Positions 2,816-3,643 of a stretch of 20,192 nucleotides of DNA are shown here, piece after piece. How positions within the stretch are numbered: position 1 is the stretch's first letter; each line of letters opens with the position of its first letter. Origin of the DNA: a virus (Duplodnaviria > Heunggongvirae > Uroviricota > Caudoviricetes); IMG/VR virus record IMGVR_UViG_2537561937_000013, positions 1 to 20,192 of that record. One strand, 5' to 3'. A program made the position numbers and the translations under genes. The notes under the pieces were generated by a model that was not told the DNA's origin, searched no databases, and saw nothing but the letters and a program-made list of their open reading frames with translations.

Positions 2816-2840
2816 GGTAACAAGAGTTACCTTTCGAGTC
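2816..2840 (-). promoter_or_regulatory. Putative OL/pL: operator palindrome GGTAACAAGAGTTACC overlapping a leftward promoter
   Basis: Perfect 6-N4-6 inverted repeat at 2816-2831. A minus-strand -35-like TTGACT (reverse complement of 2835-2840) sits 5 nt upstream of it. Same TAAC-N4-GTTA core as the two sites near the cI/cro divergent region. Confidence 0.4.
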
Positions 2841-2873
2841 AATACGATGTTGTAAAAGGTACATTTGAGAGCG

Positions 2874-2899
2874 TGAAAAACCCGCAATGAATGCGGGTT
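2874..2899 (-). terminator. Rho-independent terminator downstream of the repressor gene
   Basis: On the minus strand: stem AACCCGCA / TGCGGGTT with a 5-nt loop, followed by a TTTTT tract, located just after the cI-like stop at 2905. Confidence 0.6.
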
Positions 2900-2904
2900 C
2901 TGAC

Positions 2905-3579
2905 TCAGTCTAAGTATTGATGTATTTGTGAAACTTTACCTTTAATGGTGTAACCACCATTCAGTTCGATGGGTTTGTAAAGCGGATTCAGTGACAACAG
3001 ATAGATGTTTGGTCCGTCAATCGCAACTTTTTTTAGTGTTACGTTTGGCGTTCCTTCCAATTGGATTAAGATTATTTTTCCCACCAGTTCTCTAATGTTA
3101 CTTGAGCATGGTGTGATCAGCACGGTAGATCCGTCGGGGATGGTTGGGAGGCCGTTAGAGTTTGTCATCGCATCTCCCTCAACATGCAATAAAAAAGAGT
3201 TTTCAGCGGTTTTTGTCATGACATCAACCCAATTCTTAATGCCAGGAATCTCGGTTACTGGACAACTCATATCCCAATAACCAGCCTGTTCCCACGTTAA
3301 AACGGGCAACCGGGCGATGTTGTCACTAATGTAAGGATACTGATTCAGACGCAGATCATCGGTTTTATCGTGACCGTCCTTTCCATAAAGAATCCATTCA
3401 GGAGATTTGGAAAGCAATTTTGACAGTAGATGCAAATTCTCACCGTCAGGTTTTGAAGAGCCATTTTCCCATTTTGTTACGGATACACGAGATATGCCGA
3501 TTGCTTTCGCAACCTGCTGTTGGGTTAATCCAACGTCTTTTCGACGATTCCGAATACGTTCGCTGATAGTGTTTTTCAT
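2905..3579 (-). CDS. cI-like prophage repressor: N-terminal HTH (XRE-type) plus C-terminal LexA/S24-like domain
   Basis: HTH segment LTQQQVAKAIGISRVSVTKWENG. C-terminal region aligns by eye to the lambda cI / LexA autocleavage domain (VEGDAMT...KIILIQLEG...TLKKV). The track ORF extends to 3678 on a TTG codon; ATG at 3577-3579 is chosen because it leaves about 90 bp of divergent promoter/operator space before cro. Start is uncertain (alternative ATG at 3619-3621). Confidence 0.8.
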   Translation of the reverse strand: MKNTISERIRNRRKDVGLTQQQVAKAIGISRVSVTKWENGSSKPDGENLHLLSKLLSKSPEWILYGKDGHDKTDDLRLNQYPYISDNIARLPVLTWEQAGYWDMSCPVTEIPGIKNWVDVMTKTAENSFLLHVEGDAMTNSNGLPTIPDGSTVLITPCSSNIRELVGKIILIQLEGTPNVTLKKVAIDGPNIYLLSLNPLYKPIELNGGYTIKGKVSQIHQYLD

Positions 3580-3580
3580 G

Positions 3581-3643
3581 TAACCAATGTTACTACCAAG
3601 TGATGTTGCTATGGTTGACATTCCTATGTAACTATTGTTACCC
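3581..3643. promoter_or_regulatory. Putative OR region: two operator copies ATGTAAC-N4-GTTAC and a -35-like TTGACA for the rightward promoter
   Basis: atgTAACcaatGTTAc at 3581-3592 (core) and atgTAACtattGTTAc at 3629-3640 (core). TTGACA at 3615-3620 lies 8 nt before the second operator, the same layout as at OL. Confidence 0.45.

Follow-up and report, generated by a model that had tools for sequence, protein, structure and literature searches.

The 20,192-nt IMG/VR virus record IMGVR_UViG_2537561937_000013 (Caudoviricetes), referred to here at its full length as the window, contains an immunity region that belongs to a lambdoid, P22/Qin-like Escherichia coli prophage, an assignment based on its gene content: an S24 repressor, a P22_Cro protein, YdaT, replication genes, and a left arm with ydfA and DicF. 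We addressed a palindromic motif that recurs on both sides of the repressor gene as the candidate operator of this switch. The repressor gene (2905-3579, minus strand) encodes a cI-type protein of 224 amino acids (aa) with the Pfam domains HTH_3 (helix-turn-helix, HTH) and Peptidase_S24 and the recognition helix SRVSVTKWE; the protein aligned with lambda cI along its entire length and, in the N-terminal domain, with P22 c2 (63 residues, E = 2.6e-12). Across a gap of 91 bp lies the divergent cro gene (3671-3886, plus strand; Pfam PF14549 P22_Cro family, 2.9e-16; recognition helix SHVAVVRW). The two divergent genes thus enclose a short regulatory gap, as in lambdoid switches, and the pairing of a PF14549 Cro with a c2-like N-terminal domain is that of the P22 subgroup. 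Next to cro is the CII-equivalent gene ydaT (3883-4308, plus strand; Pfam; PDB 8BT1, E = 9e-88), whose product shares approximately 95% identity with the CP-933P protein of known structure, and O-like and DnaC-like replication genes (Pfam) come after it. On the other side, an intrinsic terminator (2876-2901, minus strand; hairpin and U-run, -18 kcal/mol, z = -5.0) sits between the repressor gene and a putative leftward promoter, PL, which is followed by ydfA (DUF1391; 2480-2632, minus strand; identified by Pfam and by the RefSeq annotation of the near-identical locus L001) and, downstream of ydfA, by the DicF small RNA (sRNA) gene (1495..1444, minus strand; Rfam, 76.7 bits). In L001, the left arm reads ydfA-ydfB-ydfC...dicB-ydfD-exo-xis-int.

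The 0.8-kb immunity core was found in 702 of 5,426 complete E. coli genomes (~13%). Among deposited phages, no repressor was more than 45% identical to that of the window, and a megablast search of the phage collection matched only the flanks ydfA and ydaT, with the immunity core unmatched. Since a repressor scan of one genome per species returned just two irrelevant HTH hits, the relatives compared below come from a protein search and from contig look-ups. Nothing meaningful came out of an Rfam scan of 2450-3700 at permissive settings, and none of the genes in the window was recognised as an antirepressor gene.

Three palindromes and their candidate promoters

An earlier reading made from the letters alone (the sequence-only reading) had pointed to three motif copies and two TTGAC-type boxes, all of which were present: GGTAACAAGAGTTACC (2816-2831), ATGTAACCAATGTTAC (3578-3593), and ATGTAACTATTGTTACC (3626-3642), with a plus-strand TTGACA (3615-3620) and a minus-strand TTGACT (2842..2837). 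The first copy had been called a perfect palindrome, which is true of its arms, reaching 8 bp (AAGGTAAC / GTTACCTT, 2814-2833), but not of its asymmetric center, AAGA. When the whole window was scanned, as had been suggested, the core GTAAC-N4-GTTAC (10 specified bases) gave exactly three matches (2817-2830, 3580-3593, and 3628-3641) against 0.02 expected; none of 100 dinucleotide-preserving shuffles reached three, and all three exact copies lay inside the two noncoding gaps on either side of the repressor gene. With up to two mismatches allowed, the number of matches was that of a chance-level background (10 observed, 6.2 expected). The sole copy with one mismatch, GTAAATTTCGTTAC at 6457-6470, lies inside a DUF1627 gene and is probably there by chance. 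A motif of 10 specified bases is short enough for coincidence to be considered for the three exact matches themselves; given the expected number and the shuffles, together with the conservation of the positions in more than 10 independent modules, we regarded coincidence as having a negligible probability.

Because of this enrichment, and because of the positional conservation, the purifying selection, and the covariation between half-sites and recognition helices described below, we proposed, with a probability of approximately 0.85, that the cI-type repressor and the divergent Cro both use the three 14-bp palindromes as high-affinity operators. The gene content and the low half-site polymorphism likewise support repressor operators arranged like the left (OL) and right (OR) operators of lambdoid phages, as the sequence-only reading had suggested.

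Two of the strong sites fall in the repressor-cro gap. The OR1-like candidate operator (3628-3641, GTAACTATTGTTAC, an exact match) lies over the spacer and -10 element of the putative cro promoter PR (3615-3644, plus strand; -35 TTGACA at 3615-3620, 18-nt spacer, extended -10 TGt-TACCCT at 3639-3644). The OR3-like candidate (3580-3593, GTAACCAATGTTAC, also exact) abuts the repressor ATG and overlaps both the start and the candidate -10 element (TAACAT, 3587-3592, minus strand, 7 nt upstream of the ATG) of the presumed repressor promoter PRM. A weak OR2 candidate (3605-3618, GTTGCTATGGTTGA), assigned with low confidence, matches 6 of the 10 core bases and overlaps the PR -35, with its center 25 bp from that of OR3 and 23 bp from that of OR1. 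Beyond the repressor gene, the strong candidate OL1 (2817-2830, GTAACAAGAGTTAC, exact, with arms extending to 2814-2833) overlaps the PL-type promoter (2814-2842, minus strand; -35 TTGACT at 2842..2837, 17-nt spacer, extended -10 TGt-TACCTT at 2819..2814), a putative dicBp equivalent with a predicted start near 2807. The weak OL2 candidate (2849-2862, GTTGTAAAAGGTAC; 6/10 core bases) would lie beyond the -35 as seen from OL1, its center 32 bp from that of OL1, and only a single half-site (ATGTACC) resembles the consensus. Palindromes of one type thus overlap PR and PRM, and a copy stands at the leftward promoter. The sites had been described as overlapping the -35 boxes; they instead begin downstream of these boxes, by 6 bp at PL and by 7 bp at PR, and overlap the likely -10 elements. 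The third copy does abut the repressor start as had been stated, but it has no TTGAC box beside it and overlaps the probable PRM -10 and transcription start.

In all relatives of the OR-gap alignment, the TA...T of the PRM -10 was kept. No Shine-Dalgarno sequence was found upstream of the repressor ATG at 3579, and because the TAACAT -10 would put the transcription start at the A of this ATG, the repressor mRNA is probably leaderless, as reported or proposed for lambda cI and CP-933P paaR2 (PMC8630535). An upstream repressor start at ATG 3621 (minus strand), which gives the 238-aa form of PGAP/RefSeq and other callers, was rejected. The ATG in question corresponds to the PR -35 (TTGACAT) read on the complementary strand, and the 14 extra residues, consisting of MST (-35), a variable stretch, and SNIGY (operator), were conserved only over those two elements. 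The internal MK(T/N) start was common to 17 of 17 aligned homologues and was the annotated start in 10 of the 11 most distant ones (215-223 aa); the start at 3621 is probably a systematic miscall across the repressor clade.

If the sites act as proposed, the repressor would read each half-site with its HTH recognition helix SRVSVTKWE, and Cro would do so with SHVAVVRW. With a repressor dimer bound at OR1, the PR spacer and -10 would be covered and transcription of cro, ydaT, and the replication genes turned off; a dimer on OL1 would cover the PL -10 and turn off the leftward ydfA...DicF operon of the dicBF type. At the OR3-like site, which covers the -10 and start of the presumably leaderless PRM, Cro or excess repressor would lower repressor synthesis. 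Cooperative binding may also fill the weak sites 3605-3618 and 2849-2862 and would, at OR, yield the lambda-like 23/25-bp spacing. Because DicF lies downstream of ydfA, we further proposed that PL probably drives a dicBF-type cell-division-inhibitor operon, with ydfA as its first gene, as dicBp does in Qin.

Conservation and variation of the sites

Close modules with repressors 90, 88, 70, and 67% identical to that of the window were compared, together with an E. coli ST130 variant. In the repressor-cro gap of the 67-90% modules, the flanking DNA diverges, whereas the two 14-mers, a GGTTGACA box, and a TTGTTACC(T/C)T stretch were kept; GGTTGACA and TTGTTACC-T were unchanged across relatives with 67-100% identical repressors. 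The two OR sites of the close relatives were invariably 48 bp apart, with one of them abutting the ATG of the repressor (MK...), and the OR1 14-mer was identical in the loci L004-L011 and L102. The ATG-abutting site was present in every relative with a readable OR, being degenerate in Hamiltonella L098. On the left side, TTGAC(A/T), 6 nt, and an exact OL site follow the terminator in the window, L008, L010/11, and L102, and TTGAC with GTTACCTT was kept at PL in L008, L010, and L102; in L007, an exact site stands at the equivalent position after TTGATC. A hairpin followed by a T-run was also visible by eye, in unfolded sequence, at the terminator position of the relatives' OL sequences.

A lambda-like operator has three sites, and in the window the middle OR site and the second OL site match only 6 of the 10 core bases and are polymorphic, with the geometry kept in relatives. 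A better-matching middle OR site with the 23/25 geometry was observed in phages AH07 and 733R5, in Edwardsiella L100 (CAAAC-N4-GTTAC), and in L004 (GTTAC-N4-GTTGA). Relatives have their second OL site upstream of the -35, at a distance of 33-35 bp from the first one. L007 carries an exact copy there, its two exact sites being 35 bp apart; in AH07 and Yersinia L099 the second site departs from the core at one base, and 733R5 and ZF40 have weaker versions. The overall arrangement of sites recurred, with GTAAC-N4-G(G/T)TAC, in distant modules whose repressors were 42-52% identical to that of the window, namely phages AH07, ZF40, and vB_EcoS-733R5, and Hamiltonella, Yersinia, Edwardsiella, and Arsenophonus prophages. 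The recognition helix SRVSVTKWE was invariant in a 17-sequence repressor alignment and occurred with the core motif in modules from Pantoea, Yersinia, Edwardsiella, Hamiltonella, and Arsenophonus; Pectobacterium phage ZF40 combines the near-identical helix LSRVTITKWE with the same motif. The sequence-only reading had gone on to state that the motif defines the immunity specificity of the prophage, which is too strong: the core motif and the helix are common to a whole Enterobacterales repressor family, and the motif therefore cannot alone define prophage immunity.

A further element was noticed in the PL leader at ~2700-2745 (minus strand), with the sequence AAGTAGCC(A/G)(C/G)C(C/T)GAGGCGTA(A/T)GAA. 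It recurs in L007, L008, L010, L012, L013, L016, L101, and L102, and is conserved across very different lambdoid modules regardless of repressor and operator type; the copies in ZF40 (L013) and mEp460 (L016) are looser, with the central 5-6 nt differing. The element had no Rfam match and might be a processing or antitermination signal.

Variation within the population was assessed from 80 IMG/VR loci with 98-100% identical repressors, which reduced to 57 distinct haplotypes of a 1-kb region. Across these haplotypes, only 3 of the 30 half-site columns were polymorphic, all as singletons, compared with 101 of 312 other noncoding columns (Fisher p = 0.011), so that half-site columns were approximately threefold less often polymorphic. 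The OL1 half-sites were nearly invariant in the 57 haplotypes, and OR1 showed one singleton variant among the 80 loci. Variation was concentrated right beside the sites, at 3622-3626, 3645-3649, and 2832-2836. These results indicate purifying selection on the half-sites.

Half-sites, recognition helices, and competing explanations

Relatives with other operator types provided a further view of the same layout. In mEp390 and Lys8385Vzw, the architecture was kept, including the ATG-abutting palindrome, with GTAGGA-N2-TCCTAC sites and the repressor helix NRVTVTGWE; mEp460_4F5 has CTAAG-type sites and a third type of repressor helix. The Cro helices grouped by half-site in the same way, with SH(V/P)AV(V/C)(R/K)W for GTAAC, SHASVSGW and KHPSVSEW for GTAGG, and TTEAVYQW for CTAAG. 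With the half-sites numbered as in P22 (with 2 bp separating the dyad from the last conserved base, a numbering from our own alignment), the helix positions H3 and H6 paired with bases as Ala-H3 with A+5, Ser-H3 with G+5, Arg/Lys-H6 with C+6, and Gln-H6 with G+6. These pairings agree with those of the Cro 'evolutionary code' in the literature (summarised in PMC6649833), if Arg is counted in place of the Lys of the code. Across the three half-site types GTAAC, GTAGG, and CTAAG, helix and half-site thus covary in nature as the published code would predict.

These observations bear on two other explanations of the palindromes. One is that they are mainly promoter elements, with the outer TAC..T serving as the -10 and the inner half-site as spacer, so that their conservation would come from recognition by RNA polymerase. 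The outer half-sites of OR1 and OL1 do provide the -10 hexamers (TACCCT and TACCTT), and OR3 provides TAACAT. However, conservation is symmetric over both half-sites, including the promoter-proximal GTAAC that has no promoter role, and the three promoters, whichever strand they are on, have the same 14-mer. In addition, relatives switch both arms jointly (GTAGG/CCTAC) together with the recognition helices, which is unexpected under a -10 constraint. We therefore considered a promoter-only origin of the conservation highly unlikely.

The other explanation is that a different protein binds the sites, for instance YdaT, some further factor of the prophage, or a host regulator of the LacI/GalR type. 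Binding by the repressor and Cro is deduced here from sequence, and operators of the LacI/GalR family also contain GTAA...TTAC. The LacI-family palindromes, GTAA-N4-TTAC, nevertheless span 12 bp and not 14 bp. For YdaT, the footprinted site TTGATT-N6-AATCAA is different (PMC9986795), and the window has a near match to it elsewhere, at 3876-3893. CP-933P, with a near-identical YdaT, uses different repeats, GTTTAGTAA, for PaaR2 and the Cro analogue YdaS (PMC8630535), and modules without YdaT, for example Edwardsiella L100, retain GTAAC sites. Since the motif moreover follows the helices of the repressor and Cro, we gave binding by some other protein as little credence as the promoter-only origin, and preferred the repressor and Cro as the proteins that would occupy the sites.

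Several observations weigh against this assignment. Because the outer half-sites supply the proposed -10 elements, their conservation is confounded, and part of it could reflect the -10 itself. The promoters were read by eye as conserved TTGAC boxes followed by weak extended -10 elements, and a consensus sigma-70 scan of 2400-4000 called no promoter; PR and PL were missed because their -10 hexamers match the consensus at only 3 of 6 positions, while that of PRM matches at 4 of 6 and the PRM -35 is poor. Strong sites in the window number just two at OR and one at OL, the remaining sites being weak and polymorphic. In the Salmonella relatives L004-6, the OR sites are kept, but the left arm is a different one and has no OL site, and the agreement with the Cro code depends on the alignment used for numbering. 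Finally, the literature consulted on ZF40 operators, the Cro-code table, and GTAAC/GTTAC operators left this operator undescribed, although Hall et al. 2005, which reportedly tabulates many prophage Cro sites, may list it.

Relation to known switches and the catalytic residue of the repressor

Overall, the switch probably works like those of P22 and lambda; its Cro and the repressor N-terminal domain group with P22, and its specificity differs. The P22 operators at OR and OL are 18 bp long, ATTTAAG-N4-CTTAAAT. The likeness to P22 includes the Cro family, the alignment of the repressor N-terminal domain to c2, even-length palindromes with the axis between base pairs, a common T-A-A core in the half-site, divergent genes, and operators over PR, PRM, and PL. 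In contrast, the half-site here is (A/T)(T/G)GTAAC and not the ATTTAAG of P22; GTAAC replaces TTAAG, and helix positions H1, H3, and H6 differ, with Lys here in place of Gln at H6. The window also differs from P22 in having only two strong sites at OR and one at OL, Ala in place of the S24 Ser, and YdaT in the cII position. Lambda shares the HTH and S24 repressor aligned over its full length to cI, a comparable geometry at OR (three candidate positions with centers 23 and 25 bp apart), a repressor-proximal site that overlaps a probable leaderless PRM, and the terminator and PL downstream of the repressor gene. However, the operators here are even in length (14/18 bp) and those of lambda odd (17 bp), the Cro fold family differs, the middle site is weak, rexAB is absent, OL lies ~0.8 kb from OR, and Ala occupies the position of lambda cI Ser149.

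The immunity type of CP-933P (E. coli O157:H7) was considered for its common YdaT, which is ~95% identical, its near-identical YdaT site at the cro/ydaT junction, and its lambdoid layout. It was rejected, as CP-933P has the repressor PaaR2 followed by a toxin-antitoxin pair and GTTTAGTAA-type repeats, whereas the window has an S24 cI (PMC8630535, PMC9986795). The different repressor and repeats indicated that a different immunity module is grafted onto the same cII-type gene. At the junction in the window, the candidate site for the CII analogue YdaT (3876-3893, ATGATTCATGAAAATCAA) has one mismatch to the CP-933P site TTGATT-N6-AATCAA footprinted in PMC9986795, and is probably a PRE-equivalent control site. 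The DicA/DicC region of Qin (10.1101/2023.04.14.536235) likewise has a leftward promoter just past the repressor gene that drives an operon of the ydfA ... DicF type; however, the window encodes an S24 repressor of 224 aa in place of the short DicA (135 aa) that controls dicBp, a distinction drawn from the repressors themselves.

The S24 nucleophile of the repressor is replaced. The residue that aligns to lambda S149 is Ala137 (GDAM; codon GCG, 3169-3171 on the minus strand), and it was Ala in all 80 of the near-identical IMG/VR loci. The Ala-Gly cleavage site (QAG) and the Lys (LKK) are present, but the Ser-Lys dyad needed for RecA-stimulated self-cleavage is incomplete. The LexA S119A and cI S149A mutants are noncleavable. 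From the change to Ala137, RecA-stimulated self-cleavage of this repressor is predicted to be lost, which in turn predicts prophages unresponsive to SOS induction via repressor cleavage. Ala was also observed in the 90% identical relative (GCG) and in a Salmonella relative (GCA), whereas Ser was kept in the 88%, 67%, and ST130 variants and in all more distant homologues; with two different Ala codons, the change may have arisen once or more than once. The Ala137 form is the dominant repressor form in E. coli and occurred in roughly 686 of 5,426 complete genomes. More speculatively, and with the odds somewhat against it, the switch might be blind to RecA and the SOS response, holding a prophage with DicF/dicBF-type genes and IetAS locked or able to flip only through Cro. 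The same tentative proposal holds that the repressor may cross-immunise against many unrelated temperate phages with GTAAC-N4-G(G/T)TAC sites, such broad cross-immunity being suggested by the invariance of the recognition helix across a wide Enterobacterales family.

Although this is ordinary lambdoid phage biology, the switch itself seems not to have been characterized before. The analysis provides a concrete candidate operator sequence and promoter layout for an immunity module of ~13% of complete E. coli genomes that is without a close counterpart among deposited phages, and it points to the signal that would control the dicBF-type cell-division-inhibitor operon in strains carrying the module. 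The sites and the repressor could also serve as an orthogonal repressor-operator pair.

Two further features were observed to the right of the immunity genes. The early-right region contains an IetAS anti-phage defence pair, composed of an AAA ATPase (7471-8625; PADLOC IetA, 8.9e-143) and an S8 subtilase (8600-10864; IetS, 4e-300). Downstream of the genes for the Q antiterminator and a DNA methylase, two tRNA genes (15484-15556 and 15660-15733) and an STnc100 sRNA match (16433-16622) were found, an arrangement common in the late regulatory regions of lambdoid prophages.

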